A stretch of DNA of 64,000 bases, from contig CAZSCV010000005.1 of the NCBI GenBank assembly GCA_964605525.1, positions 39,256 to 103,255 on the forward strand, in the 5' to 3' direction. Made by a program: the position numbers and the translations under genes. The DNA comes from an uncultured Bdellovibrionales bacterium (GTDB lineage: Bacteria > Patescibacteriota > Minisyncoccia > Moranbacterales > UBA9337). Of the stretch, positions 2,851 through 56,897 are shown piece after piece. Every line of letters begins with the position of its first letter. The first letter of the stretch is position 1. Under the pieces are notes generated by a model. That model did no database searches, had not been told where the DNA came from, and saw only the letters and a program-made list of their open reading frames with translations.

Positions 2851-2878
2851 ATTTATACCAGTCTTTTTCTGGCGGAAT

Positions 2879-2904
2879 AATTACAGGAAAGCGGGGTGAG
2901 GCTT
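2879..2904 (+). repeat. repeat module B (aattacaggaaagcggggtgaggctt) in a 3' UTR; second copy at 4624..4649
   Basis: Both copies lie about 30-50 nt after the stop of a plus-strand gene (2850 and 4575). Confidence 0.6.
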
Positions 2905-3091
2905 AAGAGATAAAAGATTTTAAAAAAATGATTGAGAATTTGAAATTAAAATTAATCTCCTTGTTCGAAGCTGTGCATAGACGGATTTTTAGGTATGAGA
3001 TGAGTGATGAATAAGGTCTTTTAAAAAGTATTTCTTGACATCCCGTTTCTGATAGTGTACTATTATTGTATACTATTAGAAATAAGTATTT

Positions 3092-4575: not shown

Positions 4576-4623
4576 GGATTATACCAAAACAATGCGGTCG
4601 TCGAGTTTTTGGCATAATCATTA

Positions 4624-4812
4624 ATTACAGGAAAGTGGGGTGAGGCTTGAAAAGCATTGGTTTATCGTCTAACAATCGTCTATAATCTATGAGGGAGATA
4701 AAAAAATAAAAATAACCCCGAGGTTAAAATGGGTGGTATAATGTCTGTGGAAAGAATGATCTGGATCTGGTTTCCATTTTACCCCGAACAAGCGGAGTGG
4801 ATTTTGAAACTG
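4624..4812 (+). repeat. composite of repeat modules B', A', C', D' in the spacer upstream of the glycan locus
   Basis: B' at 4624-4649, A' at 4664-4686 (with a TATAAT), C' at 4732-4760 (tggtataat extended -10), D' at 4782-4809. The order C-D is permuted relative to the D-E-C arrangement at 1661-1833. Confidence 0.7.
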
Positions 4813-4881
4813 TCGAAATATTTGAAAGGGTTTGAGATGTGAAAAATAATTCATTTAAAAATTTTTTAACAAAAAATAAAA

Positions 4882-5688: not shown

Positions 5689-5702
5689 ATTCAATAAGAA
5701 TA

Positions 5703-6227
5703 ATGAAAAAAGGAATAGTGATTTGGCTTACGGGCTTGCCGTGCAGTGGGAAAACAACATTATCCAAGGAAATCGAAAAATATTTTCAGCAAAAGAATTT
5801 GCCCATTCAGAGATTGGATGGCGATGTGGTGCGTGAAACTATCAGCAAGGATTTGGGATTTTCGAAAAATGATCGAGATGTTAATATCGAGAGAATTTCG
5901 TATGTGGCGCAGATGCTTTCGGATAATGGTGTAAATGTTGTTTCCGCTTTTGTTGCTCCATATCAGAAAATGAGAAATTTTACACGTAGTCTTTGTGAAA
6001 ATTTCGTAGAAGTTTATGTTAAATGCGATATTGAAGAATGCAAGAGAAGAGATGTAAAAGGAATGTATGCCAAAGCCGCCAAGGGACAAATTAAAGATTT
6101 CACAGGAGTCGACGATCCTTATGAAACTCCAAATAATCCAGAGGTTGCTGTAAATACGGAATACGAAGAAATAAAAGAAAGTACAGAAAAAATTATTCGT
6201 TGTGTTTTAAATAAGCATACTTTATGA
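5703..6227 (+). CDS. cysC: adenylyl-sulfate (APS) kinase
   Basis: P-loop GLPCSGKTTL, an RLDGDVVR motif, and length/architecture typical of CysC. Confidence 0.85.
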   Translation: MKKGIVIWLTGLPCSGKTTLSKEIEKYFQQKNLPIQRLDGDVVRETISKDLGFSKNDRDVNIERISYVAQMLSDNGVNVVSAFVAPYQKMRNFTRSLCENFVEVYVKCDIEECKRRDVKGMYAKAAKGQIKDFTGVDDPYETPNNPEVAVNTEYEEIKESTEKIIRCVLNKHTL

Positions 6228-7039
6228 TAAAAATATTTTTTCTAAAAAAATATTATTTTATTGTTTATCATCTTACAAGAATGTTTTTTTTGGAAAATAT
6301 GGTGATAAATAAAGAAAACAAGCACAAAAGAATATATCATTATCATATTAGAAAAACCGGAGGAACAAGCTTGAATAAGATGTTTTTTTTATTAAATAAC
6401 ACAAAAGATGATTCAATGAATATATATAGTGAGATTTGCAATTCCATGAATCACAGAGCGGTTGATAGCATGAGTAGAATTTATGTTGGATATAATCCTT
6501 ATTTTATTGAAAATGAAGATTATTTTTATGGATTTTCTCATATTCCAATGCATAAAATAAAAATTCCTACAGAAATATTTACCTTTACAATAATAAGGGA
6601 TCCTGTCGAAAGAATATTGTCCCATTATAAAATGTTATTAGACTATGAAGCAAATAAAAATAAACATCCTTCGTTTAATACTGAAAAAAAATGGATAGGG
6701 GATAGCTTCGGTGATTTTATTAGTAGAGTGCCGTCTAGACATTTAATGAGGCAGTTGTATATGTTTTCCAATAGCTTTAATGTGGAAGAAGCAGTAGAGA
6801 ATATTTCAAAATGTTCCCATGTGATATTTTTTGAGGATTTTAATAAAGGAGTGAAATCGTTATTTGATAAACTAGAATTGGATATGCCGGAAATTATTCA
6901 TGAAAAGAAAAGTGCTGTATGTTTTGAGCCAAAATACGATGAATTGTTGATGTTAAGAAAACTGATAGAAAAAGAATTGGTTTTCTACGAAAGGGTAAAA
7001 TATATTTATAGGCATAGTGATTTATTGAATAATTTATGA
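6224..7039 (+). CDS. carbohydrate sulfotransferase (Sulfotransfer_2-like)
   Basis: 5'-PSB-like YHIRKTGGTSL and 3'-PB-like IIRDPVERILSHY motifs. ATGA overlap with cysC. Confidence 0.55.
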   Translation: MIKIFFLKKYYFIVYHLTRMFFLENMVINKENKHKRIYHYHIRKTGGTSLNKMFFLLNNTKDDSMNIYSEICNSMNHRAVDSMSRIYVGYNPYFIENEDYFYGFSHIPMHKIKIPTEIFTFTIIRDPVERILSHYKMLLDYEANKNKHPSFNTEKKWIGDSFGDFISRVPSRHLMRQLYMFSNSFNVEEAVENISKCSHVIFFEDFNKGVKSLFDKLELDMPEIIHEKKSAVCFEPKYDELLMLRKLIEKELVFYERVKYIYRHSDLLNNL

Positions 7040-7049
7040 ATACAAAAAA

Positions 7050-7679
7050 ATGATATTAAAAATTTTATTGCGAGAGATAAGATATGTATTTTCAGTAACG
7101 AAGAGGTTTTTTATAAGTCCAAAATTTCCAAAAAATAAAGACGGAAAGATCTTGATTCATATTGGATGCGGAGATATAAAAGACTCTTGTTTCGTGAATA
7201 TTGATGCGCGACCCATGGAGCATATTCATTATGTAACAAAAAATGTTGATAATTTAAGCTTCCTTCCATCTAAAAGTGTTGATTTATTGTATATGTGTCA
7301 TGTTATGGAGCATTTTGATAGAGCAAAATCTGTCATGGTTACAAAAGAATGCTTTAGGGTTCTCAAACATGGCGGAATATTGAGAATTTCCGTTCCAGAC
7401 TTCGATCGAATAGTTGATATTTATCTTGATAACAATAGAAACATGAAGGCTATTATAGCCCCGTTATTTGGAGGACAAGATTATGAGTTTAATTACCATT
7501 ACAATATGTTCAACAGAGAAAGTCTTGGTGAATTATTTAAACAATGCGGTTTTCGTATTACAAGAGAATGGAAGCCTGATGATGTGCAGTATCATAAATT
7601 TGATGATTGGTCGCGAAGAAAATTTAGCGTCGATGATAAAAAGTATATCATAAGTCTGAATTTGGAGGCTGTTAAATAA
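7050..7679 (+). CDS. class I SAM-dependent methyltransferase
   Basis: Motif I-like ILIHIGCGD and HVMEHF. Confidence 0.6.
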   Translation: MILKILLREIRYVFSVTKRFFISPKFPKNKDGKILIHIGCGDIKDSCFVNIDARPMEHIHYVTKNVDNLSFLPSKSVDLLYMCHVMEHFDRAKSVMVTKECFRVLKHGGILRISVPDFDRIVDIYLDNNRNMKAIIAPLFGGQDYEFNYHYNMFNRESLGELFKQCGFRITREWKPDDVQYHKFDDWSRRKFSVDDKKYIISLNLEAVK

Positions 7680-7697
7680 TCCATTTTATTTTTTTAA

Positions 7698-9005
7698 ATG
7701 AATTTATATAGAAGATTGTTAATTTTTTTAGAAAATATTCATGTGCTCATTTTTAAGCGCTCATCAGGAAGAAAGATGCGAGAATTTGCTATAAATCTTT
7801 CTTGGTCATTGGGTGGATTTTTTTTTAGTTCCTTTATATTATTTTTTCTTAATGTTTCAGCTGGTAGAATTTTAGGACCCGTCGGATATGGAAAATATAA
7901 TCTGATATTGGTTTTGGCAAATATTGTTTCTGTGGTTATCCTCCTTGGATTGAATACGACAACTACAAAATTTTTAGCAGAAAGTAAAAATGAATTGGAA
8001 AAGAAAAGAATTCTTTCAAATTCAATCATTATTATATCTATTACTAGTTTGATTTCTTTATGCTTATTTCTGCTGATGTTGTTTTTGGATTTATTTAATG
8101 GATTAAATTTAAATCCGAATCTGTTTTTTACAGCTATAATCTTTGCGATTTTGTTAAGCTATAAATCTTTATTTGACGGAATAGCCAAAGGATTAAATTT
8201 ATTTGAATATCAAACGAAAATTAGAATTGCGGAGAGTTTGATTGTAGTTATAATTTTTTTACTATTTTTTTCCCAACTAAAAATTGGCAATTTTTTCTAT
8301 TATGCCATATCCCTAATTGGAGGAATGGTGTTTTTTTGCCTATTTTTTTATTTTAAAATTAAAAGTTATGTAATAGGGTGGAGCATGCAACATTTTAAGA
8401 GGATATTTAAATATACAAGAGACACAATTGTTATTACTATTATTCTTATGATTGTAAATTATTTAGATAGGATTTTTGTAGGAAGATTTATTGGATTAAC
8501 AGATCTAGGAATATATAGTGCCTATCTAACTTCGTCATCAGTTTTCGTAGGTCAAATAATGATAGTTTTAAATAATGTTTTTTTTCCGGCAGTAATTTTA
8601 TTAGAAGATAAAGATGCAGTAAAAAAACAAGTAGATAAATTATTTATATTTTTTTCAATTCCAGTATTTTTTTTATTTTCCATTGTTTCATACGGAGCAT
8701 TGTATCTTTTTGGAAATAATTTTGAGAAGAATATTCTTATTATTTTTGCCTTTTCTTTTGCTTCCGTTCTTCAATTGTTTGGAAGCTTATATAAAAGTTT
8801 AGTATCTTCACATGAATCAAAATATGGAAAATATAGGAAACTTTCTTTTACTCTGCCGATTTTTTTTATAGTCTTTTATGGGATATTGGTTGTTTTTGAT
8901 TTAAAAAATTTAAATTACGCGACATTTGCCTATGTGGCGTTTGTAAGTTATAATTTTACTATTATTCGATTAAGTTGTAATTATGAAAAGAAAAAAAACA
9001 TTTAA
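7698..9005 (+). CDS. polysaccharide biosynthesis protein / Wzx-like oligosaccharide flippase
   Basis: 435 aa with about 12 predicted TM helices, in a glycan locus context. Confidence 0.5.
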   Translation: MNLYRRLLIFLENIHVLIFKRSSGRKMREFAINLSWSLGGFFFSSFILFFLNVSAGRILGPVGYGKYNLILVLANIVSVVILLGLNTTTTKFLAESKNELEKKRILSNSIIIISITSLISLCLFLLMLFLDLFNGLNLNPNLFFTAIIFAILLSYKSLFDGIAKGLNLFEYQTKIRIAESLIVVIIFLLFFSQLKIGNFFYYAISLIGGMVFFCLFFYFKIKSYVIGWSMQHFKRIFKYTRDTIVITIILMIVNYLDRIFVGRFIGLTDLGIYSAYLTSSSVFVGQIMIVLNNVFFPAVILLEDKDAVKKQVDKLFIFFSIPVFFLFSIVSYGALYLFGNNFEKNILIIFAFSFASVLQLFGSLYKSLVSSHESKYGKYRKLSFTLPIFFIVFYGILVVFDLKNLNYATFAYVAFVSYNFTIIRLSCNYEKKKNI

Positions 9006-9738
9006 AAAAAGAATTTTTAATGCGCTAAAAACTGTCGGACTTTGGGGTATTATAAAACTTATTTTTGTAAACATAAAATTGTATTATCTTAGAATAAGGA
9101 AAACTCCATCCTATTCGCAACTGTTCGAGGATTATTTTCTGGATTCATTGATGAAACATAGTAGAAATGGATTCTATGTCGATATTGGCGCTAATGATCC
9201 CTTTAATTTGAATAATACGGCATTTTTTTATCAAAAAGGATGGCATGGTATTAATATTGAACCGGATATGCAAAAATTTAATTTATTAAAAGAAAAAAGA
9301 CCTGACGATATTAATATAAACATGGGCGTAGGCAAGAATGCCGGAATACTTAAGTTCTACAGATTTAAAGATAGCTCCTTATGTACATTTTCAGAGGATG
9401 AGGCGAAAAAAAGAGTGCAGCAGGGCGTTGAATTGATTGGTGAAACTGAAGTCTTCGTAGATACTCTCGCGAATATTTTGGCAAAGAATATTCCATCGGA
9501 GAAGAGAATAGACTTTATTTCAATTGATGTCGAAGGTCTTAATCGAGATGTTCTGTATTCAAATGATTGGAAAAAATATAGACCAAGATATGTTTGCATA
9601 GAAGTTGCTGAGTATTGCAAAGATGTTTTAACTAAAGATATGGAGATTGTTAAATTTTTAGAAAAGCAGAAATACAAAGAAGTATTTTTTAATGGAATTA
9701 ATTCTATTTTTAAAGATATAAAAAAAAATGAAAAATAA
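8983..9738 (+). CDS. FkbM-family methyltransferase
   Basis: FYVDIGANDPFN and FISIDVEGLNRDVL motifs. Confidence 0.7.
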   Translation: MKRKKTFKKRIFNALKTVGLWGIIKLIFVNIKLYYLRIRKTPSYSQLFEDYFLDSLMKHSRNGFYVDIGANDPFNLNNTAFFYQKGWHGINIEPDMQKFNLLKEKRPDDININMGVGKNAGILKFYRFKDSSLCTFSEDEAKKRVQQGVELIGETEVFVDTLANILAKNIPSEKRIDFISIDVEGLNRDVLYSNDWKKYRPRYVCIEVAEYCKDVLTKDMEIVKFLEKQKYKEVFFNGINSIFKDIKKNEK

Positions 9739-10687
9739 GGACGAGATAGAGTTTAAGCAGGAATCCATTAATAATTGCCCTGTTTGCCTTTCGAGTGAGA
9801 TCAGGTTTCACTTAAGTAAGTTTGATGATAGATATGGACAAGCCGATATTTTTCATTTATATCGTTGTTTGGAGTGCGATGCAGTTTTTTTGAAAAATAG
9901 AATAAAAGAAGCTGAGCATCCTCCGTTGTACGAAAAATATTACATTTTTTTATCTAAAATTAATAAAAAGACTTCTACAAAGGAAGCATTTTTTTGGTTA
10001 CAAAAAATGATTATGAAGGTAGCAGGCGAGTTTTTTTTAATTGGGAAGATGAATTATGAAGCGAAAGTTCTTGAAATAGGTCCTGGCGATGTTTCTCAAT
10101 TATCAATGCATAGCATAAAAAAGAATAAGTTAAAATGGATTGGACTGGAGGTCAATGAAAAATGCGCGAAAAATATCAAAGGAAAGGGGTTAGATGTTTA
10201 TCGAGAGTCGTTCGGAGACTTTATTTCGAGAGGAATGAAATTTGATTCAATAATTTTGTCGATGTCAATAGAACATTTGCATGACCCAATCCTTTTTTTT
10301 GGTAATTGTAAAAAAGTTTTACATGAAGATGGTGTTATATTTTTAACTACCGCTAATCTGGATTCCAGATATCGAGAAAAATACAATAAAAGATGGATCA
10401 ATTGGCACGTCCCATATCACCAAGTGCTTTTTTCGAAAAAATCTATAAAAATGATTTGTGAAAATAATGGATTCTACATAAAAAAATATCACACATCTAC
10501 TCCAACTAGCTGGTTTTTATTGCAAAAGAAATTTAGTATACCTACGAGAGGAAAAATAAATACTGATTGTGCGATGAGTTTTTCATTTGTGGATTACTTG
10601 CTATTTTCAGTGTTCCTCAGATTTTATGAATTTTTTTCCAGGAATAGTGGGGATTGCATGTATTGTGAAATAAAATTAAGAAAGTAA
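9728..10687 (+). CDS. SAM-dependent methyltransferase with an N-terminal Cys4 zinc ribbon
   Basis: CPVC...CLEC pair and a VLEIGPGD motif I. Confidence 0.55.
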   Translation: MKNKDEIEFKQESINNCPVCLSSEIRFHLSKFDDRYGQADIFHLYRCLECDAVFLKNRIKEAEHPPLYEKYYIFLSKINKKTSTKEAFFWLQKMIMKVAGEFFLIGKMNYEAKVLEIGPGDVSQLSMHSIKKNKLKWIGLEVNEKCAKNIKGKGLDVYRESFGDFISRGMKFDSIILSMSIEHLHDPILFFGNCKKVLHEDGVIFLTTANLDSRYREKYNKRWINWHVPYHQVLFSKKSIKMICENNGFYIKKYHTSTPTSWFLLQKKFSIPTRGKINTDCAMSFSFVDYLLFSVFLRFYEFFSRNSGDCMYCEIKLRK

Positions 10688-10698
10688 ATAAAAAAAGT

Positions 10699-12891
10699 AT
10701 GTTTTTTTTGGGTGTGATTTTATTTTTTATTATACCGTCAAATATAGCGTTGCTTTTTTTTGCACATTTTTGTTTAGCAAAGAACTATAGGATAATTTTT
10801 ATAACTTCATATGGAGTAGCTCCCTTCTTAAGTCCAGTGCTTTTCTATTACCTGATTTGGTTTTTTCCGGAAAGGTCAGATTTGTTTTATTTGTTATGGC
10901 TGTCAATTTTTTGGATTATAGCATTGGTGATATCGTTTATGAAATGGAGAAAGGTCGCTTTGTTGTACAGGATGATTTATAGAGATTTCATCAGATTCTT
11001 TGAAATTTTTATAAGAATGAAAATGATTTCCTATTTAGCGGTGTTAAGTATGTTTTTATTCTTATATTTTATTCAATCTTTTTATTATCCGATTTTAGGG
11101 AATGACAATGCCCTTTATATTGGGCAAAGTATTGCATTGCGGGAATATAAAAACTTAGAATGGGAGAAAAAAACATTTGTCATGGTTGATGGAAGCGAAT
11201 ATAGATACAACTCATCAATTAGACCAGGAATTCCATTTTTTGTTTCTATCTTTATAATGAGCGGAGTGGATTACAGGAAAATGTTTCAGTTTATTTCTAC
11301 ATATTATTACGTTCTTCTTTTTGGAATATTTATGCTTTTTGTATATAAAGTATCCATAGAACTAAAAAAAAATATCGGGCGGTCTTTTTTTTGGGCCAGT
11401 TCATTCTTTTTGTTTTCTTGGGTGCTTACCAGAGCATTTATTTTTAATGCAAAGGAGATTGTAGTTTATTTTTTTGCACTTCTTTCTTTGTATTTAATTT
11501 ATGTTTTAATTAAGATGAAAGAGCGAAATATTTTTTTTGAATTATTAACAGGAATAGCAATAGGCGTGGGTGTTTTTGTTAATTTACACGGAGTGATAAT
11601 TGGCGGTATTGTTATTATGTTGTTATTTGTATTATCAAAGCTTAATATTAAGGAAAGAATTAAACAATGTGTTTCTATATTTTTATACCATTTTATTTTT
11701 AGTGCTTTTGATTTTGCGAGAATTTTTCGTTTTATATTTATTATTACCATAAAAGGTTTAATCGCAAAGGGTAGTATTTTTTTGAATAAAATATTTAGCG
11801 CTTTTGATTTTAAAAATAGATCTAATATTTTTTCTGATAATACAAACAATATTCCTAGAAATGAAATTAAAGAGGCTGATCATGCAGTACGGGCAGTGAT
11901 AGTGAATAATTCAGGAGGAAATATTAATTCCGGGATTTTGAGGGGTACCACCGGAAAGCACCTTGCGCTTTACGGAATGAAAAATTTATTTGATATATAT
12001 ATAAAGGGAAAATTTCAAATTTTTACAAATATAGGGGTTTTCGGTTTCTACTTTTGGGTTTTTTTGACTATATTAATGCTTAAGATAAGGGAGTTATTAA
12101 GGAGTGACATTACTAAAATTCTTGTATTTTTTATTTTAATTTATTTTTTATTTATACTGGATGTTTTTAACATAAACACTCACCCTGCCGCCATTGTATT
12201 ATGGGGGAGCACGAAATATGCGGCTTTATTGCTCCTTATAAGTATGATTGTGTCAAGCGTGTATATCGAACAATTTTTTGAATTTTTTATTGGTTTTATT
12301 AAAAAAAATGTTAGGAAAGTTATAATTTTTTCTTTCCTGGTCGTTTCTTTAATTATAAGTCTAAATAAATTATTTATATCGCTAGGAGTCAGCTTATTGT
12401 CATTGACAATTTCTTTTTCGAAAGACGAGTATTTTTATAGAGAAAAAGTAGAATATTTTTATTATATTTTAGTATTTTTTATAATTATTTTTTTAGTGGC
12501 TATTTTTTTATCAAAATACAGGGAAAAATTATCTTATAATATTCTCGTGTCTTCTTCATTGATGTTTTTTGTCTTAATGCCGTTTTTTATTACTACGGTA
12601 GGAAAAGTTGATTTATTAAAAACTTTTCATTATTTGAATAGTAGTTTGCAAAATAAGCTGGAGAAGAGTTATTTGAAAGATATATATGATGTGTATTTTT
12701 TTGCAAAAGATAACCTGAAAAAAAATTCCATCATTAGAACTGGATTTTATGACATATATACTTACAATGATTATTTTTCACTGAGAATGAAAAGCGATAA
12801 TGAAGTTCAATATGAGATAAGTGCTGAATGTGGTATAAGTAGTGCTCATATTATATATAACTCGAAAGAGGTTTATTTATGCGAGAAATAA
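10699..12891 (+). CDS. large polytopic membrane protein (730 aa), putative GT-C-type glycosyltransferase/polymerase
   Basis: More than 15 hydrophobic segments, in a glycan locus context. No specific family motif was recognised. Confidence 0.3.
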   Translation: MFFLGVILFFIIPSNIALLFFAHFCLAKNYRIIFITSYGVAPFLSPVLFYYLIWFFPERSDLFYLLWLSIFWIIALVISFMKWRKVALLYRMIYRDFIRFFEIFIRMKMISYLAVLSMFLFLYFIQSFYYPILGNDNALYIGQSIALREYKNLEWEKKTFVMVDGSEYRYNSSIRPGIPFFVSIFIMSGVDYRKMFQFISTYYYVLLFGIFMLFVYKVSIELKKNIGRSFFWASSFFLFSWVLTRAFIFNAKEIVVYFFALLSLYLIYVLIKMKERNIFFELLTGIAIGVGVFVNLHGVIIGGIVIMLLFVLSKLNIKERIKQCVSIFLYHFIFSAFDFARIFRFIFIITIKGLIAKGSIFLNKIFSAFDFKNRSNIFSDNTNNIPRNEIKEADHAVRAVIVNNSGGNINSGILRGTTGKHLALYGMKNLFDIYIKGKFQIFTNIGVFGFYFWVFLTILMLKIRELLRSDITKILVFFILIYFLFILDVFNINTHPAAIVLWGSTKYAALLLLISMIVSSVYIEQFFEFFIGFIKKNVRKVIIFSFLVVSLIISLNKLFISLGVSLLSLTISFSKDEYFYREKVEYFYYILVFFIIIFLVAIFLSKYREKLSYNILVSSSLMFFVLMPFFITTVGKVDLLKTFHYLNSSLQNKLEKSYLKDIYDVYFFAKDNLKKNSIIRTGFYDIYTYNDYFSLRMKSDNEVQYEISAECGISSAHIIYNSKEVYLCEK

Positions 12892-12899
12892 TTTAATTT

Positions 12900-13649
12900 T
12901 TAAGACCGAAATTTGTTTAGCTTGTCTATAATATTTAACAGAAAGATTAGGACGGAACTTTTTAAATATTGCTTGTGAATAAGATTATGCTCGTTGTTAG
13001 ATTTTCCTTTCGTGCTCTGTGAATCAGGATGAATAAAGAAATTACATATAGTTTTATTAAAAAATACCGGAAATACGTTGTTTTTTAAGAGCCGTAACCA
13101 CATCTCATAGTCCATTGAGTTCTTGTATTTTTCATTGAAGTATCCATATTTTTTGAATATTTTTTTCTGAATGAAAACGGATTGATGAGGAATATAATTA
13201 GTTGCTAGCAAAAGCCAGAACTTAGCTTTATGATAAATTTTTCTATGCGGGATTATTCTACTAGCTCCTCTTATCTCATTGATAAATAATGCTTTTCCAT
13301 ATATCCAATAAGGATTTTTGTTTATTAATATAAAGGCGTTGATTTCCTTTAATGTATCCGGACTAAATAAACTATCATCGGAATGCAAGTGAATAATATA
13401 TTTTCCCGACGATTTATTTATTCCAATATTCATAGCATTTCCGATTCCTCGCGGCTTGAATTGAAATAGTTTAACTTTTTCTGGAAATTCTTTTTGATAA
13501 CTTTTTATGATAGAGGTGGTTTTGTCTGATGAAAATCCATCAATGAATATGTGTTCAAAATTTTTGAATGATTGATTTTTTATGGAATCTATGTTTCTCC
13601 GGATATACTTTTCGCTGTTGTATGTGCAAGTAATTATCGAAAATTTCAT
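12900..13649 (-). CDS. glycosyltransferase family 2
   Basis: N-terminus FSIITCTYNSEKYI...FIDGFSSDKT. Confidence 0.8.
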   Translation of the reverse strand: MKFSIITCTYNSEKYIRRNIDSIKNQSFKNFEHIFIDGFSSDKTTSIIKSYQKEFPEKVKLFQFKPRGIGNAMNIGINKSSGKYIIHLHSDDSLFSPDTLKEINAFILINKNPYWIYGKALFINEIRGASRIIPHRKIYHKAKFWLLLATNYIPHQSVFIQKKIFKKYGYFNEKYKNSMDYEMWLRLLKNNVFPVFFNKTICNFFIHPDSQSTKGKSNNEHNLIHKQYLKSSVLIFLLNIIDKLNKFRS

Positions 13650-14770
13650 AATAAAGTGGATTTAATTATATTAGCTGCAGTTTTTGTTTTTTGGATAATT
13701 CCCCACGAATCATTTTTTAAGTGCAAATTATTTTCAAAAACATTTTTTATTGCCTTGGTGATTTCTTTTGAATTAGCAGATTTGATTATGTATCCATTTT
13801 TTCCATCTTCAATAAGATCGGCGCTCGCTCCAGCTTCTTTCGTTGCTATAACGGGTAGATCACAAGCCATAGCTTCATTTATTACCAAGCCCCAAACTTC
13901 CTCGTAAGATGGAAGTATCAGTAAATTGGAAATGGAATAATATTTGTAAAGATCGTCATATTGGATGAAATCAGTAAAAATTATATCTTTTAAATGCATT
14001 TTTTTTATAATTCGTTTCATCTTTTCTTTCTCTCTCCCTCTTCCTATGATTAACAAGGAAACGTCAGGGTCATAAGTATGATAGTCTTTAAAGCCCTCAA
14101 GGAGGTTATAAATTCCTTTTCTTTCAATTAGCTGTCCGTTAAATAATATTATTTTTGAAGTTTTTATTCCTAGTTTATTTGTTATCAATTTTTTTTCTGT
14201 TCGAGTAAGGTTTTTTGTCTTTTCTTTAAAGTAGTCTATGTCAATAGAATTGAAGATTATTTCAATGTTCTTAGGGTTAACTCCGAGCGAAATGATGTAA
14301 TCACGCGCTCTTGTTCCGTAGACTACAAATTTATCCGTATTTTTAAATAAATATTTCACAAGAGGAGAAAATATTGTTCTTCTCCAACTCGGTTCATATT
14401 TAGTACTTCCTGACCAAAGAATGAATTCTTTTTTGTTCTTGCGTGCCCACCAGTTTGCTGCGTAAGCAGCAAAATGATCCCAGCCGAAACATATTATTTT
14501 ATCTGGATTATTATGACTAAGCGCACTCAGTATGTTTGGGTTTATAAAGAAAGTAAAGAGATCTTTTTTTCCAATTCTGATGGCAAAATTTTTTAGAATT
14601 TCATAATCAAATCTGATGTTAAAATCTTTCCAATATCTATTTTTGTCACTTTTGCTCAGGAAAAAAACTTTAAGTGTGCTTTCGTTATTGTGATAATGTT
14701 TATTTAACTCATTGAATAAATGAATTCTTGCTGGGCTTATTATGTTATGTAATACGAGTATTTTCTTCAT
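13646..14770 (-). CDS. glycosyltransferase family 4 (GT-B)
   Basis: C-terminal EX7E-type region SYEEVWGLVINEAMACDLPVIAT. Confidence 0.7.
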   Translation of the reverse strand: MKKILVLHNIISPARIHLFNELNKHYHNNESTLKVFFLSKSDKNRYWKDFNIRFDYEILKNFAIRIGKKDLFTFFINPNILSALSHNNPDKIICFGWDHFAAYAANWWARKNKKEFILWSGSTKYEPSWRRTIFSPLVKYLFKNTDKFVVYGTRARDYIISLGVNPKNIEIIFNSIDIDYFKEKTKNLTRTEKKLITNKLGIKTSKIILFNGQLIERKGIYNLLEGFKDYHTYDPDVSLLIIGRGREKEKMKRIIKKMHLKDIIFTDFIQYDDLYKYYSISNLLILPSYEEVWGLVINEAMACDLPVIATKEAGASADLIEDGKNGYIIKSANSKEITKAIKNVFENNLHLKNDSWGIIQKTKTAANIIKSTLL

Positions 14771-14806
14771 TTTTTTGATGTAATTATGAAAAATGTTTAG
14801 AAGCGG

Positions 14807-15970
14807 TTATTTGTAGATATTTTCTAGCTTGGAACAAACTTTGTCTATGGAAAATTTAATCGCAATCATATTTTTTGAATTTATGGATAGTTTTTTCTTT
14901 AAATCGGAATCATTTAGGATAGTTAATATTTTATCTGAAAATTCAGTTTTATTTTTTAGTTCCAATTCAAAGCCTGCTTTATGTGTTTCAATTTCTGGAA
15001 CATTGCAGTTTTTTGAGATGATCTGGGGGATGCCAATGGCGGCGACCTCCAAAACTGTCATAGGTAGACCTTCGTTTCTGGATGTGAAAATAAAAATATC
15101 ACACGATTTTATCGTTTCGAGTTTTTCTTTTCCGGTTAGTATTCCAGTAAAAACAACGTTGTTTTGCAAATCTAGTTCAATTGCCATTTTTTTTAATTTT
15201 TCTTTTTCTCCTTCATCGGGACCGATAATAAGATAGGTGAATTTTGTTTTGTATTTTAGGGAAGATAGAATTTCTATTGATATATCCACTCCTTTGATAT
15301 ATTGCAATCTTCCGATATATGCGATGATTTTATTTTCTTTCGGAAAATTGTATTTTTTACTTAGATTGATTTTTTTGATGTTTTCAAATTCTTCAAGGTG
15401 GAGACCATTGGGAATGATAATAGTTTTATTCTCAAATTTTTTGTTTATTGAAATTATTTCACTTTTTTCATTTTCCGTCAGGGCAATAATGTTCTTTGAG
15501 TTTTTTAGTATGGTTGTAAAAATATCTAAAAAAATCTTTTTTATGAATTTAAATTTGGCCTCTTGTCGAACCAAGGAAAGAGTGCCGTGAGGTTGAATAA
15601 TGAAGGGAATATTATGTTTTTTGCAAAAATGGGCAGTAATGATGTTTTGTAAAGTAAAAAAATCATGGCAATGAACTACATCAAAATTTCGTATATTATT
15701 TTTAGCCCAAAAATAAAATCCAATTGGTAAGTACCCGTTGCAATTTTTGGCTAGCCAATTACTGATGTTTCTGAAGCGGATAATTTTTATTCCGTTAACA
15801 TCTTCTTGAAGTTTTAAGATTCTATTTTTTTTATCAAGTGTGTCTGTTGTGACCACGGTAACTTTGTTTTTGCGGGCGGTTAATTCTTTGGAAATATCGA
15901 AACAAACTTTAACTGGTCCGCCGAAGCCGTAGGCTGGAATAAAATATGGAATAACTTGAAGTATTTTCAT
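14807..15970 (-). CDS. glycosyltransferase family 4 (GT-B)
   Basis: RNEGLPMTVLEVAAIGIPQI motif. Confidence 0.7.
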   Translation of the reverse strand: MKILQVIPYFIPAYGFGGPVKVCFDISKELTARKNKVTVVTTDTLDKKNRILKLQEDVNGIKIIRFRNISNWLAKNCNGYLPIGFYFWAKNNIRNFDVVHCHDFFTLQNIITAHFCKKHNIPFIIQPHGTLSLVRQEAKFKFIKKIFLDIFTTILKNSKNIIALTENEKSEIISINKKFENKTIIIPNGLHLEEFENIKKINLSKKYNFPKENKIIAYIGRLQYIKGVDISIEILSSLKYKTKFTYLIIGPDEGEKEKLKKMAIELDLQNNVVFTGILTGKEKLETIKSCDIFIFTSRNEGLPMTVLEVAAIGIPQIISKNCNVPEIETHKAGFELELKNKTEFSDKILTILNDSDLKKKLSINSKNMIAIKFSIDKVCSKLENIYK

Positions 15971-17466
15971 TTGGTTTTTATAAACGAGTATTCTTCTTTG
16001 GAAGATGAAATGGCAAAAATTTTATAGTTTGCTTTGTTGAGTTTTTGTATCGCATCTCTTGTTTTTTGGGCAGATATAGAAGAAAAGCGATGATGAAATT
16101 CAATTAATATCTGCTTGATATCAAAGTTATTTTCAATTATGTCATCAATAATTTCATATTCAGAGCCCTCGATATCCATTTTTAGAATGTCAATTTTATT
16201 GTGACCCAATTCTTTCATTATTGTTGTCAGATTTTTTACCTTAACTATTATTGGACTGTTTGCATGGTCTTTGCGTACAATACTGTGTGAAATGTGATTT
16301 GGGTTTTTCGGGGGAAACAGCTCGACAAATCCATTTTGTGCGGATAATCCATAATCAAAATATTGAAAATTATTCGGAAGATGTTGTTTCTTCAACCAAC
16401 TTATTGATTTTGGAGTAGGGTCAAAGGCAAAAACCTTACATCCATATTTTGAAATAATGTCTAAATCAAATGAAATATCCTCTCCTATTCCAAACGAATA
16501 AATAATGCTTTCGCTGTGTATATTTTTAGGGGAAATAGTCCAACCTCCATATTTTTTCGATCCAATAAAATCACCGTGAATGTTTTTTTGAACGAAAAAA
16601 AACACTTCTTTACCTAAAGCAACTTTTGCTAGGTATCTGATTTTCCAAAGAAGTAGTTTTAATTTTTCCACAAAGAAATATTTATTTTTTTTTATCTTAC
16701 TTAAGGCTTCATAGATCGTAGTTATCTTGTAATAATTGAATTTATGCAAGAATAATGATGCTGGATATTTCCCCCCGTATTTTTTAGCTAGCCTCAGTTC
16801 ATCTTGAAATTGTTTTTTGTTGACACTGCCACTTTTGCTGTTTGGATAATATCTGAAATTCGCCAGATAATTATCAATAACTCCGGCTGGATATTTTTGA
16901 CCGATTCTAAGCCAAAATTCATAATCCATACACAGATGCTCATTTTCATCAAAAAAACCCCTCTTGGCGTGAATTTCGCGTTTCCAGAACGTTGCGGGTT
17001 GGGAGATGAAATTTTCTGTCAGGAGTTTTGCATAACTGTATTTTCTAAGAAGAAAGTTTTTGTACCATGTTATGGGCTTCCTTATTTCTTCATCATTCTT
17101 GTTGATAATTTTGCATTTGCCATAGACCCAAAATTTTTCCGGATTTTTCTTGAAAAAATCGGCGACTTTTCGGAGCGCGCTTGGCTTGTAGGTATCATCG
17201 GAATTGAGATAGGCGACAATGTCTCCGGTAGCCATTTTGAGTCCCTTGTTGATGGCATCAGATTGTCCATTGTCTTTTTCGGATTTCCAAATGATGTGGT
17301 CGGAATATTTTTTCAAAATTTCAATTGTTCCATCGGTTGATCCTCCGTCCATAATGATATATTCAAGATTCGGATAATCTTGCTTGAGCACGCTCAAAAT
17401 AGTCCGTTCAATAAATTCGGCTTGATTGTATGATGGGGTAATAATTGAAATTTTAGGATTGTTCAT
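15967..17466 (-). CDS. bifunctional glycosyltransferase family 2 / FkbM-family methyltransferase fusion
   Basis: N-terminal [14 protein letters not shown]...[10 protein letters not shown] (GT2) and C-terminal [11 protein letters not shown]...[16 protein letters not shown] (FkbM). Confidence 0.7.
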
Positions 17467-51005: not shown

Positions 51006-53699
51006 ATGATTAAAATTTTCAAAAAAATATTCGGTTCAAATGAGCGGGAAATAAAAAAACTTCAACCGATTGTGGATAAGATAAATTTCTTAGATGAAGA
51101 AATTTCCAAACTTTCCGATGAAGATTTGAAGGGAAAAACGCAAGAATTTAAAAAAAGAATAAAGGATGCGGAAGATGAGAAAAAGGCGTTGGATGAAATT
51201 CTTCCTGAGGTTTTTGCGGTTGTGCGCGAAGCGGCGCATCGGGTGATTGGAGAAAAACATTACGATGTGCAATTAATCGGAGGATTGATTTTGCATCAAG
51301 GAAAAATTGCGGAAATGAAAACGGGGGAGGGAAAAACCCTGACTTCGACTTTGCCGATTTATCTTAATGCACTTTCCGGAAAAGGCGTGCACGTGGTTAC
51401 GGTCAATGATTATTTGGCAAAAAGAGATTGTAATTGGATGGGTTCTATTTTTAATTTTCTCAATCTTTCAACGGCTTGCATTATGCACGACGCCTCATAC
51501 CAGTATCGGCCGAAATTGATTGATGAAAATGAGGTGAGTGTAGAGATGGAAAATCTTTCTCCTGTTTCCCGCAAAGAAGCGTATAGTTGCGATATTACAT
51601 ATGGAACAAACAACGAATTCGGTTTTGATTTTTTGCGCGATAATATGGCGCACAGTTTGGAACAATATTCCCAGCGCGGATTTAATTATGTAATCGTTGA
51701 CGAAGTGGATTCAATTTTAATTGATGAGGCGCGGACCCCTTTGATTATTTCCGCTCCGGATACGGAATCCACCAAGCAATATGTGCAATTTGCAAAAATC
51801 GTACCTCAATTGAAAATGACGGAAGATTTTGAAGTGGATGAAAAAATGCGCTCTGTTACACTCACAGACAAAGGAATTTCCAAAGTGGAAAAACTTTTAG
51901 GAGTGGGAAATATTTATGAACCCGGAAAAATTAGCTATGTCCATCATTTGGAACAATCTTTGAAGGCGGAAATTCTTTTTAAGAAGGAAAAGGATTATAT
52001 TGTTAAGGATGGAAAGGTGGTGATCGTGGATGATTTCACTGGACGTTTGATGGAAGGGCGCCGGTATAGCGAAGGGTTGCATCAGGCGATTGAAGCGAAG
52101 GAGGGAGTTGCTGTTCAGAGAGAATCAAAGACATTGGCAACCATTACGTTTCAAAATTATTTCAGGATGTATGAAAAAATATCCGGTATGACCGGGACAG
52201 CAATTACGAGTGCGGAAGAATTTGCAAAAGTATATAAGCTGGATGTTGTGGATGTCCCGACCAATGTTTTGGCGCAAAGGAAAGATCTGCCAGACATTGT
52301 GTATAAAACTGAAGAAGGAAAATTCAAAGCTATTGTTGAAAAAATAAAAAAAATAAACGAGGCCGGACAACCGATTTTGGTTGGTACCGTGGCGATTGAA
52401 AAATCGGAATATTTAAGCGAGCTTTTGGAGCGGGATGGAGTTAGGCATGAAGTTCTTAATGCTAAACAGCATGAAAAAGAGGCGCAAATTATTTCTAACG
52501 CCGGACAGAAAGGATCAGTTACGATTGCTACTAATATGGCGGGGCGCGGAACTGATATTAAACTCGGAGAAGGCGTAAAAGGGTTGGGCGGATTGTATAT
52601 TATAGGAACGGAACGCCATGAAGCGAGAAGAATCGATAACCAGCTTCGCGGACGCTCCGGACGACAAGGAGATCCCGGGGTGTCGCAATTTTATGTTTCG
52701 CTTGAAGATGAACTGATGCGCCGTTTTGGAGGAGACCGGATGAAAAATATGATGAATACATTGGGCCTTCCGGACGATCAGCCGATTCAAAATAAAATTA
52801 TTTCAAAAACAATTGAAAATGCCCAATCAAAAATTGAAGGGTTTAATTTTGATATTCGCAAGCACGTTTTGGAATATGATGATGTGATGAATAAACAGCG
52901 GGAAGTTATTTATCGGAATCGAAGAAAAATTCTGGAAACAAAAAATGCTCGAAATGAAATATTTCAATATATTTCCGAAGAATTGGAGGCGATCGTTTCA
53001 TCTCGTTGCGGAACGGAAGAATGCAATTGGGATATAAAAACTATCATAACGGATATAGGAGGAATTTTTTCTTTGTCGGATGACAATAAAAAACAGCTTC
53101 AGGTAATCAGCAATGACAGGGGATTGGACGGAGCAACTCAAGCTAGTAAAATACTGGATTATTTAATGGGGATTGCCAAGCAAGCCTATGCAAAGAAGGA
53201 GGAAGAAATCGGAGAGGAAAATATGCGAAAAGTGGAAAAAATGATTATTTTGCAATCAATGGATACTCTCTGGATGAATCATTTGGATCAGATTGATTAT
53301 TTACGCCAGGGAATCGGACTTCGCGGTTATGGACAGCGCGATCCATTGATTGAGTACAAAAAAGAAGCGTATGATCTTTTCTCTACCTTAATTCGAAGTA
53401 TTCACTCAACGATTGTAAATACTATTTTCAAAATAACTCTTGCGCGCCCATTGGAGCAGATTTCGACTGAAGAAAAAAAGGAGAATTGGAAATTGCAAGG
53501 AGCTGATGATCAGATCGAGCAGTTTAAATCTGTCAAAAATCCGCAAGCATTCGCTTCCGGAGGATCGTCGCATGATGAAATTCCAAAACAGAAACCCATA
53601 AAGGTTGCCAAGCTTCCAGGAAGAAATGATCCTTGCCCATGCGGAGCAACAAAAGAAGACGGGACTCCGAAAAAATTCAAGAATTGCTGCGGAAAATAA
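51006..53699 (+). CDS. secA: preprotein translocase ATPase SecA with a C-terminal zinc finger
   Basis: KTGEGKTLTSTLPIYLNAL...VTVNDYLAKRD and C-terminal CPCGATKEDGTPKKFKNCCG. Confidence 0.95.
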   Translation: MIKIFKKIFGSNEREIKKLQPIVDKINFLDEEISKLSDEDLKGKTQEFKKRIKDAEDEKKALDEILPEVFAVVREAAHRVIGEKHYDVQLIGGLILHQGKIAEMKTGEGKTLTSTLPIYLNALSGKGVHVVTVNDYLAKRDCNWMGSIFNFLNLSTACIMHDASYQYRPKLIDENEVSVEMENLSPVSRKEAYSCDITYGTNNEFGFDFLRDNMAHSLEQYSQRGFNYVIVDEVDSILIDEARTPLIISAPDTESTKQYVQFAKIVPQLKMTEDFEVDEKMRSVTLTDKGISKVEKLLGVGNIYEPGKISYVHHLEQSLKAEILFKKEKDYIVKDGKVVIVDDFTGRLMEGRRYSEGLHQAIEAKEGVAVQRESKTLATITFQNYFRMYEKISGMTGTAITSAEEFAKVYKLDVVDVPTNVLAQRKDLPDIVYKTEEGKFKAIVEKIKKINEAGQPILVGTVAIEKSEYLSELLERDGVRHEVLNAKQHEKEAQIISNAGQKGSVTIATNMAGRGTDIKLGEGVKGLGGLYIIGTERHEARRIDNQLRGRSGRQGDPGVSQFYVSLEDELMRRFGGDRMKNMMNTLGLPDDQPIQNKIISKTIENAQSKIEGFNFDIRKHVLEYDDVMNKQREVIYRNRRKILETKNARNEIFQYISEELEAIVSSRCGTEECNWDIKTIITDIGGIFSLSDDNKKQLQVISNDRGLDGATQASKILDYLMGIAKQAYAKKEEEIGEENMRKVEKMIILQSMDTLWMNHLDQIDYLRQGIGLRGYGQRDPLIEYKKEAYDLFSTLIRSIHSTIVNTIFKITLARPLEQISTEEKKENWKLQGADDQIEQFKSVKNPQAFASGGSSHDEIPKQKPIKVAKLPGRNDPCPCGATKEDGTPKKFKNCCGK

Positions 53700-53759
53700 A
53701 ATATTTCGGATGTTCTTGTGGGTAAAAAATCCAAAAACAGAATCAATAATAAATACAAA

Positions 53760-54221
53760 ATGATAACTTTTGAAGAATCTTCCGGTGCAGTGGTATTCCG
53801 GCGCGAAGAAGGAAAAATAAAATATCTGCTTTTGCAATATCGAAACAAGCACTGGAGTTTTCCGAAGGGTCATATTGAAAGCGGTGAATCTTTGCTCGAA
53901 ACAGTCAGAAGAGAAACAAAAGAGGAAACCGGAATTGATGATTTGGAAATATGCCCCGGCTTTTCCAGGCGTATTTATTTTTATTACAAAGCAGTCGGAT
54001 CAGAAAGGGAAGAGAGGATTAAATCAAAAAGAAGCATACGAATATTTAAGCGGGTAACTTTCTTTTTGGGAAAAACCGCAAAAGAGAAGGTTGTTTTGTC
54101 TGATGAGCAAATTGATTTTGCATGGCTAGAATTTGATAAGGCCTTCGAAAGGACGACGTATTCCAAAGACCGTTCGGTTCTTGTCGCGGCAAGTCAATAC
54201 TTGAAAAATGCCGAGATTTAG
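53760..54221 (+). CDS. NUDIX hydrolase
   Basis: Nudix box GHIESGESLLETVRRETKEETGI. Start set at MITFEE. Confidence 0.8.
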   Translation: MITFEESSGAVVFRREEGKIKYLLLQYRNKHWSFPKGHIESGESLLETVRRETKEETGIDDLEICPGFSRRIYFYYKAVGSEREERIKSKRSIRIFKRVTFFLGKTAKEKVVLSDEQIDFAWLEFDKAFERTTYSKDRSVLVAASQYLKNAEI

Positions 54222-54239: not shown

Positions 54240-55991
54240 ATGAACTCAATAAAAAAGACAAGAATAAAATTTGCATCGGTTATTGTCCTGGCTTTGCTGG
54301 CGGGAATTGTTTCCTATCCGCAATCAATAAAATTCATTCCTCCGGCATATAATGCCGTCAATAAATTGAAAATAAATTTAGGGCTGGATTTGCAAGGAGG
54401 AATACATTTGGAATATAAAGCTGACTTGAGCAAAATAGACAGCGCAAAAGTGGAAGAATCAATGCAGGCAGTGCAGGATGTTATTGAGAGAAGAGTCAAC
54501 GCTTTTGGAGTGGCGGAGCCGGTAATATACACCACTGAATCCGGATCAGAGCACAGGCTGGTTGTGGAATTGGCCGGAGTAAGGGATATCAATCAGGCAA
54601 AAAATTTAATCAAAGAAACGCCTTTTTTGGAATTTAAAAAAGAAGCCGACCTGAGTGATCCAGAAATCAAAACAGTTATTGATCAATTGAATGAAGAATC
54701 GAAATCCCAGGCTGATGATATTTTGATTCAGGCACTTTCTGAGAATAGTAATTTTGAAGAATTGGCAAAACAATACAGTCAAGATCCGGGATCAAAAAAT
54801 ACTGGGGGCGATTTGGGATTTGTTAAAAAAGGCGAGTTAGTCGGAGAATTTGATGCGATACTTTTTAATAATGATTTTAAAGACGGACAAATATATCCAA
54901 AGTTAATTGAAACTCAATATGGATGGCATATCATTAAAAAAATGGAAGCTCGCGGAGAAGAAGATAATATGGAGGTACGGTCGGAACACATTCTTTTTAT
55001 AAAAGCGACAGTTGATATGCTTCCGAGCTTGAAATATAAATCGACTGGTCTTACGGGGAAAAATTTAAAAAGTGCGGCTGTTGAATTTGCAAGCCAGGGT
55101 CTTTCGGAACCACAAGTAGCGTTGAAATTTGACGATGAAGGTACGAAAATTTTTGCCGAGCTGACGAAGGAAAATATTGGAAAAACCATCGCTATTTATC
55201 TTGACGGATTGCCCATCGTTGATACGAATGGGGATGGAATAATTGATAATAACGACGCTCCATATGCGCCGGTAATACAATCGGAAATTACCGACGGACA
55301 AGCGGTAATTTCAGGGAATTTCACATTGGATGAAGCGAAAAATCTTGTCGGGAGATTGAATGAAGGCGCATTGCCCGTGCCGATTAACTTGGTTAGCCAA
55401 GAGAGTGTTGATGCATCGCTGGGAGAACAGTCATTGTCCGCCAGTTTGAAAGCCGGATATATCGGACTTGGATTGGTGGTTATTTTCATGCTTTTGTATT
55501 ACAGATTTTTGGGTCTTATTGCTTCTGTAGCGCTGCTAATCTATTCCGGACTTATGGTTTCTATTTTTAAATTATCCGGACTCACACCTTGGCAAATAAC
55601 TTTGACATTGCCGGGTATTGCTGGTTTCATCTTGTCTATCGGTATGGCAGTGGATGCGAATATTTTGATTTTCGAAAGAACCAAAGAAGAAATCCGCCGA
55701 GGAAGAACCATTCTTGGAGCTTTGGACGAAGGCTTCAAAAGGGCTTGGACATCTATTCGGGATGGAAATTTTTCATCAATCATTACTTCATTTATTTTGA
55801 TTGAATTGGGAACTGGATTTGTTAAGGGGTTTGCTGTAACTTTGATTGTCGGAGTCCTACTCTCAATGTTTACCGCGGTTACGGTTTCCCGAACATTGTT
55901 AAATTTTATCTTAGGTGAATGGATTTCAGATAAATTGTGGCTGGTGGGAATAAAGAAAAGTGAAATTTCAAATATTAATAAAAAATCGTAA
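54240..55991 (+). CDS. secD: protein translocase subunit SecD with an embedded parvulin (PpiC-type) PPIase domain
   Basis: SecD hallmarks: LGLDLQGGIHLEY, TIAIYLDGLPIV and a C-terminal 6-TM bundle. Embedded segment FEELAKQYSQDPGSKNTGGDLGFVKKGELVGEFDAILF...TQYGWHIIKK matches the parvulin core. Confidence 0.85.
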   Translation: MNSIKKTRIKFASVIVLALLAGIVSYPQSIKFIPPAYNAVNKLKINLGLDLQGGIHLEYKADLSKIDSAKVEESMQAVQDVIERRVNAFGVAEPVIYTTESGSEHRLVVELAGVRDINQAKNLIKETPFLEFKKEADLSDPEIKTVIDQLNEESKSQADDILIQALSENSNFEELAKQYSQDPGSKNTGGDLGFVKKGELVGEFDAILFNNDFKDGQIYPKLIETQYGWHIIKKMEARGEEDNMEVRSEHILFIKATVDMLPSLKYKSTGLTGKNLKSAAVEFASQGLSEPQVALKFDDEGTKIFAELTKENIGKTIAIYLDGLPIVDTNGDGIIDNNDAPYAPVIQSEITDGQAVISGNFTLDEAKNLVGRLNEGALPVPINLVSQESVDASLGEQSLSASLKAGYIGLGLVVIFMLLYYRFLGLIASVALLIYSGLMVSIFKLSGLTPWQITLTLPGIAGFILSIGMAVDANILIFERTKEEIRRGRTILGALDEGFKRAWTSIRDGNFSSIITSFILIELGTGFVKGFAVTLIVGVLLSMFTAVTVSRTLLNFILGEWISDKLWLVGIKKSEISNINKKS

Positions 55992-56003: not shown

Positions 56004-56897
56004 ATGCTTAATATCATTTCAAAAACTAAATACGCATATATTTTCTCCATTATTTTATCGATTCTGAGTATTCTGAGTATTTCTTTGTGGGGTTTGAAAT
56101 TCGGTATTGATTTTACTGGCGGAACGGTGATGGAAATAAATTTTTCCCAAAATATTCCAACAAATGAAGATGCGACCGGCATCTTGGGCGATTTGAATTT
56201 AGGCAGTCTTACTATTCAAAAGAAAGGAGATAGTTCATTACTTGTGAGCTATGCTTCAGTTGACGATAGTGTCAATCAATCGGTGTGGGAAAAAATTAAC
56301 GGAAAATATCCGGAATCGACGCAAGTAAAGGTGGATTATCGCGATTCTTCCATTTCAAATGAGTTGAAAACTAATTCCTTGTGGGCGCTTTTTTGGGCGG
56401 CATTGGGTATTATGGCATTTATTGCTTTTGCTTTTCGAAAAGTTTCCCGTCCGGTTCAATCCTGGAAATATGGCGCTGGTGCGGTTGTCGCTTTGATTCA
56501 TGATGTATTAATTACAGTTGGGGCGTTTTCAATTCTGGGACATTTTGCGGGCATTGAAGTGGGGATTCCTTTTATTGCGGCACTGTTGACTATTTTAGGA
56601 TTTTCCGTTCATGATACTATCGTGGTTTATGACAGGACTCGTGAAAATTTGCTGAAAAGATTAGACAAGGAATCTTTTCCGGAAGTGGTTAACCGCAGTT
56701 TGAATGAAACGTTAGTGAGATCCATTAATACTTCGCTTACTGTGATTATAACACTGCTGGCAATTTATATTTTCGGAGGAGAAACTATTCAAAATTTCGC
56801 ATTGGCACTTTTGATTGGTGTTTCCTTTGGAACATATTCTTCAATTTTTATCGCGTCTGCTTTGCTGGTAACGAGTTATAATCGAATAAAAAAATAA
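56004..56897 (+). CDS. secF: protein translocase subunit SecF
   Basis: GIDFTGGTVMEINF and a conserved C-terminal TM region. Confidence 0.9.
   Translation: MLNIISKTKYAYIFSIILSILSILSISLWGLKFGIDFTGGTVMEINFSQNIPTNEDATGILGDLNLGSLTIQKKGDSSLLVSYASVDDSVNQSVWEKINGKYPESTQVKVDYRDSSISNELKTNSLWALFWAALGIMAFIAFAFRKVSRPVQSWKYGAGAVVALIHDVLITVGAFSILGHFAGIEVGIPFIAALLTILGFSVHDTIVVYDRTRENLLKRLDKESFPEVVNRSLNETLVRSINTSLTVIITLLAIYIFGGETIQNFALALLIGVSFGTYSSIFIASALLVTSYNRIKK

Follow-up and report, generated by a model that had tools for sequence, protein, structure and literature searches.

The role of SecDF at the outer face of the membrane and the handover from translocation to folding are still debated; in the F/I-form model of SecDF, the P1 region is the moving, substrate-contacting part of the protein. 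Recent cryo-electron tomography and biochemistry have shown that parvulin foldases dock on SecDF/SecYEG in trans. In M. pneumoniae, Mdp444/436/489 form a PrsA-like “dome” on SecDF with substrate density in contact with the active PpiC domain (10.1101/2025.04.25.650208; 10.1101/2024.09.05.611430). PpiD-YfgM has been described in association with SecYEG (PMC9643414), and SurA as interacting with the Sec machinery (PMC9987972). Here, we analyzed a stretch of 64,000 nucleotides (the window) from contig CAZSCV010000005.1 of an uncultured bacterium of the candidate phyla radiation (assembly GCA_964605525.1), in which a secD gene (54240..55991, + strand, stop codon included) encodes a 583-residue SecD that carries a parvulin-type peptidyl-prolyl isomerase (PPIase) domain within its own P1 region. 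All coordinates given below are on the + strand of the window.

The window protein is a genuine SecD subunit and shows all the defining features of the family. It covered positions 1-397 of the 397 in the NCBIfam equivalog model TIGR01129 (secD) with 375.3 bits against a cut-off of 244.4, and SecDF was the best fold match of its full-length AlphaFold 2 (AF2) model. From the N-terminus, the protein comprises a transmembrane (TM) helix (residues 3-25; 54246..54314), seen in the AF2 model and with its topology inferred from the matching solved SecDF structures, followed by Sec_GG (residues 44-62; Pfam E = 1.2e-4) and the N-terminal part of the P1 base, SecD_1st (residues 75-136; 54462..54647; PF21760, E = 2.3e-16), which ends in a conserved ‘TPFLEFK’ strand and aligns with residues 29-119 of T. 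thermophilus SecDF. Further downstream, an intact P1 head (residues 267-380; 55038..55379; PF22599 SecDF_P1_head, E = 7.5e-26) aligns with T. thermophilus residues 160-252 and precedes the SecD TM bundle (SecD_SecF_C, residues 383-556; 55386..55907), which was identified by PF02355 (E = 1.3e-9) and by alignment to 3aqp/5mg3. The matches to PF21760, PF22599 and PF02355 all exceeded their gathering scores. Within the bundle, GMAVDANILIFER aligns to T. thermophilus GAAVDGNVLSFER and holds Asp472, which was invariant in 73 sequences and which we take to be the conserved TM4 Asp of the proton pathway (D340 in T. thermophilus).

Between the ‘LEFK’ end of the P1 base and the P1 head lies an extra domain of ~125 residues (residues 137-262; 54648..55025), delimited using the insert-only AF2 model, Foldseek and insert-free SecDs. 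Pfam parvulin profiles matched residues 151-236 (54690..54947) far beyond chance, with E = 4e-22 for Rotamase_3 (PF13616; 79.4 bits, cut-off 22.5) and E = 1.5e-19 for Rotamase (PF00639; 71.2 bits, cut-off 21.7). These matches bear out the initial annotation, which had placed an internal parvulin-type domain in extracytoplasmic P1 between ‘LDLQGGIHLEY’ (residues 49-59) and TIAIYLDGLPIV (residues 316-327), as do the TIGR01129 result and the solved chains: those of SecDF matched on either side of the insert and those of SurA and PrsA matched only residues ~151-250. It had also been considered that the parvulin fold might replace the P1 head or that the segment might itself be a canonical part of that head. 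Both were ruled out, as Pfam matched the intact head at residues 267-380, separate from the parvulin segment; because the head is fully present, the parvulin has been added at the P1 base-head junction and does not stand in for the head. The N-terminal TM helix and the known topology of SecD place P1, and hence the parvulin, outside the cytoplasm.

Within the insert, the order of secondary structure elements is α1-α3, β2, α4, β3 and β4, followed by a further strand, ‘EVRSEHILFI’ (residues 245-254; 54972..55001), which was a strand in both AF2 models, includes His250 and is interpreted here as a relocated β1. In canonical parvulins, it is β1 that bears the first active-site histidine (‘..asHILv..’). 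The profile matches of the window SecD began at position 15 of 97 in Rotamase and at position 33 of 116 in Rotamase_3, and the start at position 15 indicates that the N-terminal β1 is missing before α1. Profiles and AF2 models alike placed no β1 N-terminal to α1 and a β1-type strand after β4, where the β4 sequence ‘GWHIIK’ is followed by a short ‘RGEGD’-type loop and then by ‘EVRSEHILFIK’.

The ‘HILFIK’ sequence (residues 250-255) had been put forward in the initial annotation as a hint of a permuted or extended rotamase, a suggestion that was strengthened by sequence conservation, in silico de-permutation, structural models and comparison with other proteins. The family consensus of the trailing strand is ‘E.hsAHILiaK’, its H-I-L being unchanged in 98% or more of 120 homologs. 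When the strand was moved to the front of the domain, the Rotamase match extended from positions 15-96 to positions 1-96 of 97 (75 to 77 bits) and the Rotamase_3 match to positions 13-114 (84 to 88.8 bits). Insert-free (minimal) SecDs run ‘...TPFLEFKELKGKDFVATNLTGRYL...’ and span the distance from the ‘LEFK’ base strand to the ‘TGLTG’ head motif in ~10 residues, which identifies the HILF strand as non-native to SecD. ‘HILFIK’ was also considered as the opening strand of the P1 head; this was ruled out, minimal SecDs having no counterpart of it.

The full-length AF2 model (predicted local distance difference test, pLDDT, 82.2; 81-93 per 10-residue block across residues 131-260) paired the trailing strand with β4 in a hairpin. 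When modeled alone (residues 137-262), the insert formed a compact domain with a parvulin fold (pLDDT 96.6; predicted template modeling score, pTM, 0.89) that kept β2 (residues 191-196), β4 (residues 228-238) and the extra strand (residues 245-254), with no other SecD strands as partners. Using Foldseek, this model was superimposed on the PrsA parvulin of B. anthracis (6xd8; 75 columns, 1.6 Å, 41% identity) and on CsPin (2rqs; 81 columns, 2.6 Å). Both structures superimposed on the insert core alone, their own β1 remaining unaligned and ~15-20 target residues being left over. Given the canonical spacing of β2 to β4 and this core-only superposition, the resulting one-strand gap would therefore be filled by the sole spare strand. 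The insert is moreover colinear with the P1 core, the linker and the P2 β1 of SurA (a 26-residue segment against GWHIIKKMEARGEEDNMEVRSEHILF). Overall, since the canonical strand order is not found, the insert is a permuted variant and not a canonical parvulin; sequence and models together indicate that it is very probably a circularly permuted parvulin in which the histidine-bearing β1 follows β4.

Residues of the catalytic type are conserved in the insert. Asp182 (in ‘YSQDPGS’; codon 54783..54785) was Asp in 117 of 119 close homologs and His230 (in β4 ‘GWHIIK’; codon 54927..54929) was His in 115, with the complete Asp182/His230/His250 triple present in 113; pocket positions 192 and 204 hold Leu/Tyr and Phe/Tyr, respectively. 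By motif alignment, we take Asp182 to be the equivalent of Pin1 Cys113 and of the bacterial parvulin Asp, His230 that of Pin1 His157 and, as a proposal, His250 that of Pin1 His59. The equivalence of Pin1 C113 to Asp in parvulins has been described (10.1101/2024.09.05.611430). His230 and His250 co-varied across related modules, 146 of which had both, five neither and eight only one (Fisher p = 6e-6, uncorrected for phylogeny), and joint loss of both histidines occurred in at least four lineages (P0129, P0157, P0237 and P0069/P0091). Within the pocket, Tyr was found at position 192 in 29 and at position 204 in 30 of the 119 close homologs (the ‘GGEYDF...EYE’ subgroup, about a quarter), and its presence at both positions suggests a co-substituted variant of the substrate pocket.

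All 120 of the best homologs (64-82% identity, mostly Candidatus Moranbacteria) share the same set of Rotamase and SecD Pfam domains and are annotated merely as SecD. The P1 region, used as query in an exhaustive search without profiles, recovered 230 clusters (50% identity) with E < 1e-30, and hidden Markov models (HMMs) for four sub-regions were applied to the best 150 of these. The fusion was present in 85 of the best 150 clusters, the cluster representative having one parvulin module in 63 and two in 22; no module was detected in the remaining 65. Its variants include the single ~125-residue insert of the window type, tandem inserts in proteins of ~655-705 residues, SecDF fusions with a single or tandem insert (877-1099 residues), and proteins in which 350-480 residues separate base from head. 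The ‘LEFK’-‘TGLTG’ junction was also seen to be an insertion hot spot in SecDs without a parvulin-HMM match (P0159-P0270), with spacers of 3-228 residues, and the long spacers of P0236, P0195, P0266 and P0207 look, by eye, like one or two degenerate parvulins that fall below the detection level. One large-insert SecD (P0136) contains two strongly hydrophobic, TM-like stretches at residues ~430-500, INWWQLIAYLVALGAGIAFVSSALGLFIG and IILALSAVLLAGAIYGIATI, which separate the parvulin from the remainder of the P1 head and, if real, would alter the membrane topology.

In species-representative genomes, at least 17 fusion loci were found among the 80 loci listed, a count that speaks to presence and not to frequency, and the other 63 were ordinary SurA/PpiD/PrsA genes. 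Labels of the fusion loci include Moranbacteria, Buchananbacteria, Komeilibacteria, Parcubacteria and Patescibacteria, and all reliably named members belong to the candidate phyla radiation (CPR)/Patescibacteria. Four fusion loci bear non-CPR labels (L041, L013 and L019, ‘Gammaproteobacteria’; L011, ‘Binatia’). For L041, an origin in Gammaproteobacteria was rejected: the label is not credible because the named relatives at 60-68% identity are all Magasanikbacteria, Parcubacteria or Patescibacteria. The other three encode tandem-parvulin SecDs with 49-55% identity to tandem-class SecDs, and their labels likely reflect mislabelling or mis-binning, which was demonstrated for L041 alone. L011 (DATJFD010000021.1, Candidatus Binatia label) has a GC content of 64%, which is unusual for CPR.

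Double-module SecDs have a β1-like strand after every core and before none, and their two modules differ in the residues retained. Module 1 (n = 32) had the β4 His in two proteins, Asp or Glu at the position of residue 182 in 23 (19 Asp, 4 Glu) and a His in the following strand in 29. The corresponding counts for module 2 (n = 32) were 29 for the β4 His, 31 for Asp/Glu and seven for His in the following strand, and the Pfam Rotamase match of this second module covered positions 1-97 of 97, i.e., the canonical order. The simplest reading of these patterns is that each tandem SecD pairs a dead domain with a live one, the middle strand belonging to the downstream core. By score, the core of the window SecD resembles the live cores of module 2 (median 52 bits) more than those of module 1 (40 bits). 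Tandem SecDs appear to be relatives of the single permuted form or intermediates towards it, and the permuted unit was probably cut from a tandem-parvulin unit, as exists in SurA P1-P2, after the β1 of the second domain.

Taken together, the window encodes a genuine SecD with a parvulin at the P1 base-head junction, which we consider likely to be a complete, permuted domain that would serve in cis prolyl isomerisation and/or holding of secretory proteins. As the P1 head captures and pulls the chain leaving SecYEG, an insert at this site would put a foldase or substrate-binding surface beside the emerging polypeptide. The best-supported mechanism would be that of a cis-acting foldase and holdase on chains exiting SecYEG, a task that in other bacteria falls to separate translocon-docked PrsA, PpiD, SurA or Mdp proteins. 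Catalysis and its coupling to translocation are inferred from the conserved catalytic-type residues and by analogy with parvulin/Sec complexes formed in trans. A bolder version of this proposal, which we advance only tentatively and hold to be rather unlikely, would have the parvulin sit on the hinge behind the swing of the P1 head, which is powered by the proton-motive force, in a mechanically coupled export-and-fold machine in which each power stroke brings the emerging chain to an isomerase active site and which replaces standalone PrsA/PpiD. The SecD series would then record a permutation by duplication and truncation: in tandem forms, a live parvulin of canonical order would be flanked by a dead core and a spare β1, and in single forms the spare β1 would complete the core. 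If true, these proteins would constitute a minimal envelope proteostasis system, and the SecD series would be a living record of circular permutation.

For the cis-acting permuted parvulin that we favor, several points have to be weighed on the other side. The gain in score upon de-permutation was small (2-5 bits), the placement of strand 245-254 in the β1 slot and the contact between His230 and His250 are deduced, and the covariation of the two histidines carries no phylogenetic correction. Many related SecDs have degenerate modules (tandem module 1; P0129, P0157 and P0149), showing that the domain can persist after the catalytic set has gone. Parvulin catalysis is not known to depend strictly on both histidines, and two parvulins, that of PpiD and the N-terminal one in SurA, are reported to be catalytically inactive; a conserved fold therefore need not mean catalysis.

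Such observations form the case for the main alternative, which we regard as unlikely, namely that the embedded parvulin is mainly a non-catalytic chaperone or substrate-binding module that enlarges the preprotein-capture surface of P1. The β4 His is kept in only two of 32 first tandem modules, the single-module proteins P0129, P0157 and P0149 lack both histidines, and persistence of the fold without these residues, like the reported inactivity of the PpiD and SurA P1 parvulins, argues for a binding or structural role. Conversely, the clade of the window SecD keeps the Asp/His/His triple in all but six of 119 members together with a Leu/Tyr and Phe/Tyr pocket, and tandem proteins keep the full set in one of their modules (module 2, with His in 29 and Asp/Glu in 31 of 32), a pattern suggesting that selection maintains one catalytic site or more in each SecD.

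A very unlikely alternative concerns the permutation itself: the parvulin may be unpermuted, either as a truncated domain lacking β1 or as one borrowing the SecD ‘LEFK’ strand, with ‘EHILFIK’ then being a hinge or head strand of P1. In keeping with this, the ‘PFLEFKKE’ strand lies at the linear place of β1 according to the colinearity with SurA, and the alignment with E. coli SecD runs from residue 254 of the query onward. However, ‘LEFK’ belongs to the P1 base and is conserved throughout the SecDs, those without an insert among them, and the HILF strand is without counterpart in minimal SecDs. The insert was also modeled very confidently in the absence of ‘LEFK’, with β2 still a strand, the HIL motif fits Rotamase positions 1-14 once moved to the front, and His250 co-varies with His230. 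Finally, an artefactual fusion (through chimeric assembly, a frameshift joining two genes or an erroneously called open reading frame, ORF) has negligible probability, its sole ground being the metagenome-assembled source, whereas the gene is one uninterrupted ORF with SecD sequence flanking the insert on both sides, its architecture is common to 120 of 120 best homologs, which come from many sources, and it is not an assembly chimera because an identical protein is on deposit (SecD of ‘Parcubacteria group bacterium Athens0714_25’) and a 79%-identical ortholog is found on at least 24 independently assembled contigs of up to 788 kb.

According to the ORF list and Pfam, the gene order in the window is secA, a Nudix gene, secD and secF, all on the same strand. 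The first gene of the conserved secA-secD-secF cluster, secA (51006..53699; 897 residues), was assigned from its ORF and from the SecA Pfam domains at the orthologous position in loci L081-L083. The partner subunit is encoded by secF (56004..56897; 297 residues; PF02355, E = 1.3e-55, plus Sec_GG), which adjoins secD in the same order in these loci. The Nudix hydrolase gene between secA and secD (53718..54221; PF00293 NUDIX, E = 1e-16) is context outside the feature and is missing in L081-L083, where secD directly follows secA. Contigs carrying the 79%-identical ortholog show the synteny secA-secD-secF-AA_kinase-PDDEXK, as in the window. A scan of the 64-kb window gave no second parvulin, and no other parvulin was found in the 22-kb orthologous loci; tRNA, rRNA and other Rfam families were likewise not detected across the 64 kb of the window. 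The GC content is 28-30% at positions 1-16000 versus 34-47% elsewhere, peaking at 41-47% between 20 and 32 kb.

The P1 head of the window SecD also contains an EF-hand-like loop, DTNGDGIIDNND (residues 328-339; 55221..55256), with the dockerin-like pattern D-x-N-x-D-G-x-I-D-x-x-D, which may be Ca2+-binding. The loop is missing in the closest homologs (P0002-P0004), corresponds to a gap in the alignment with T. thermophilus SecDF, and was found at the same site in four of 120 close relatives and four of 150 representative clusters, including the insert-free SecD P0164. It is a separate, sporadic feature, in a part of the protein that AF2 modeled with less confidence.

Searches of the accessible full-text literature, which omits most subscription journals, returned no account of a PPIase embedded in SecD or of a permuted parvulin. 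The fusion is common in its lineage yet apparently undescribed, and the insert appears to be the first circularly permuted parvulin, accompanied by plausible evolutionary intermediates. The fusion is built from two well-known modules, its combination of domains can already be seen where Pfam annotations have been precomputed for public proteins named just “SecD”, and its function is putative. As a covalent union of SecD and parvulin across many CPR lineages, it provides independent “Rosetta-stone” evidence that the two activities belong together and marks the P1 base-head junction as a place where a foldase is useful. The fusion also offers a compact, single-polypeptide system for export-folding coupling, and ultra-small genomes may economise on envelope chaperones in this way.

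Canonical SecD/SecDF proteins (T. thermophilus 3AQP/5YHF, D. radiodurans 5XAN and E. coli 5MG3) belong to the same family as the window SecD and share with it the N-terminal TM helix, Sec_GG, the P1 base and head, the TM bundle of the resistance-nodulation-division (RND) type, the conserved Asp in ‘GxAVDxNxLxFER’ and the adjacent secF. In contrast to the window SecD, with its ~125 parvulin residues between ‘LEFK’ and the head, their P1 has no enzymatic domain. Tandem-parvulin SecDs of Magasanikbacteria and other CPR (e.g., P0138, P0134 and L041) use the same insertion site and SecD scaffold. They carry two modules, the first without the β4 His and the second canonical with a full catalytic set, whereas the window SecD carries a single module that needs the trailing strand.

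The parvulins of PrsA, SurA and PpiD are homologous to the insert, with SurA (E = 5e-17) and PrsA (9e-14) as best sequence matches, and the P1-P2 junction of SurA looks like a template of the permuted unit. These proteins are, however, standalone, with SurA_N or NC chaperone domains and a β1-first parvulin, and the window SecD has neither. No match to SurA_N, SurA_N_2 or SurA_N_3 was obtained in the window SecD at E <= 1, and the PrsA, SurA and PpiC NCBIfam models matched the parvulin segment alone and far under their cut-offs (PrsA, 55.9 vs 361). Lacking a SurA_N or NC chaperone domain, the window protein is therefore not a member of the PrsA/SurA/PpiD family. A standalone PpiD-like protein of 658 residues with SurA_N_3 and a canonical-order Rotamase is encoded at 3095-5068 of locus L072 (Patescibacteria label), so separate parvulin chaperones exist in at least some Patescibacteria-labelled genomes, which limits the suggestion of the initial annotation that PpiD, PrsA and SurA seem dispensable in minimal genomes. 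The Mdp dome, found in a genome-reduced, wall-poor host, resembles the window SecD in that a parvulin (PpiC) foldase sits directly above SecDF/SecYEG on the outer side. Each Mdp, however, is a large PrsA-like lipoprotein in its own right, equipped with SurA-type chaperone domains and docked without a covalent link, whereas the window SecD has no SurA_N-type domain and holds a bare, very probably permuted parvulin as a covalent part of SecD itself.

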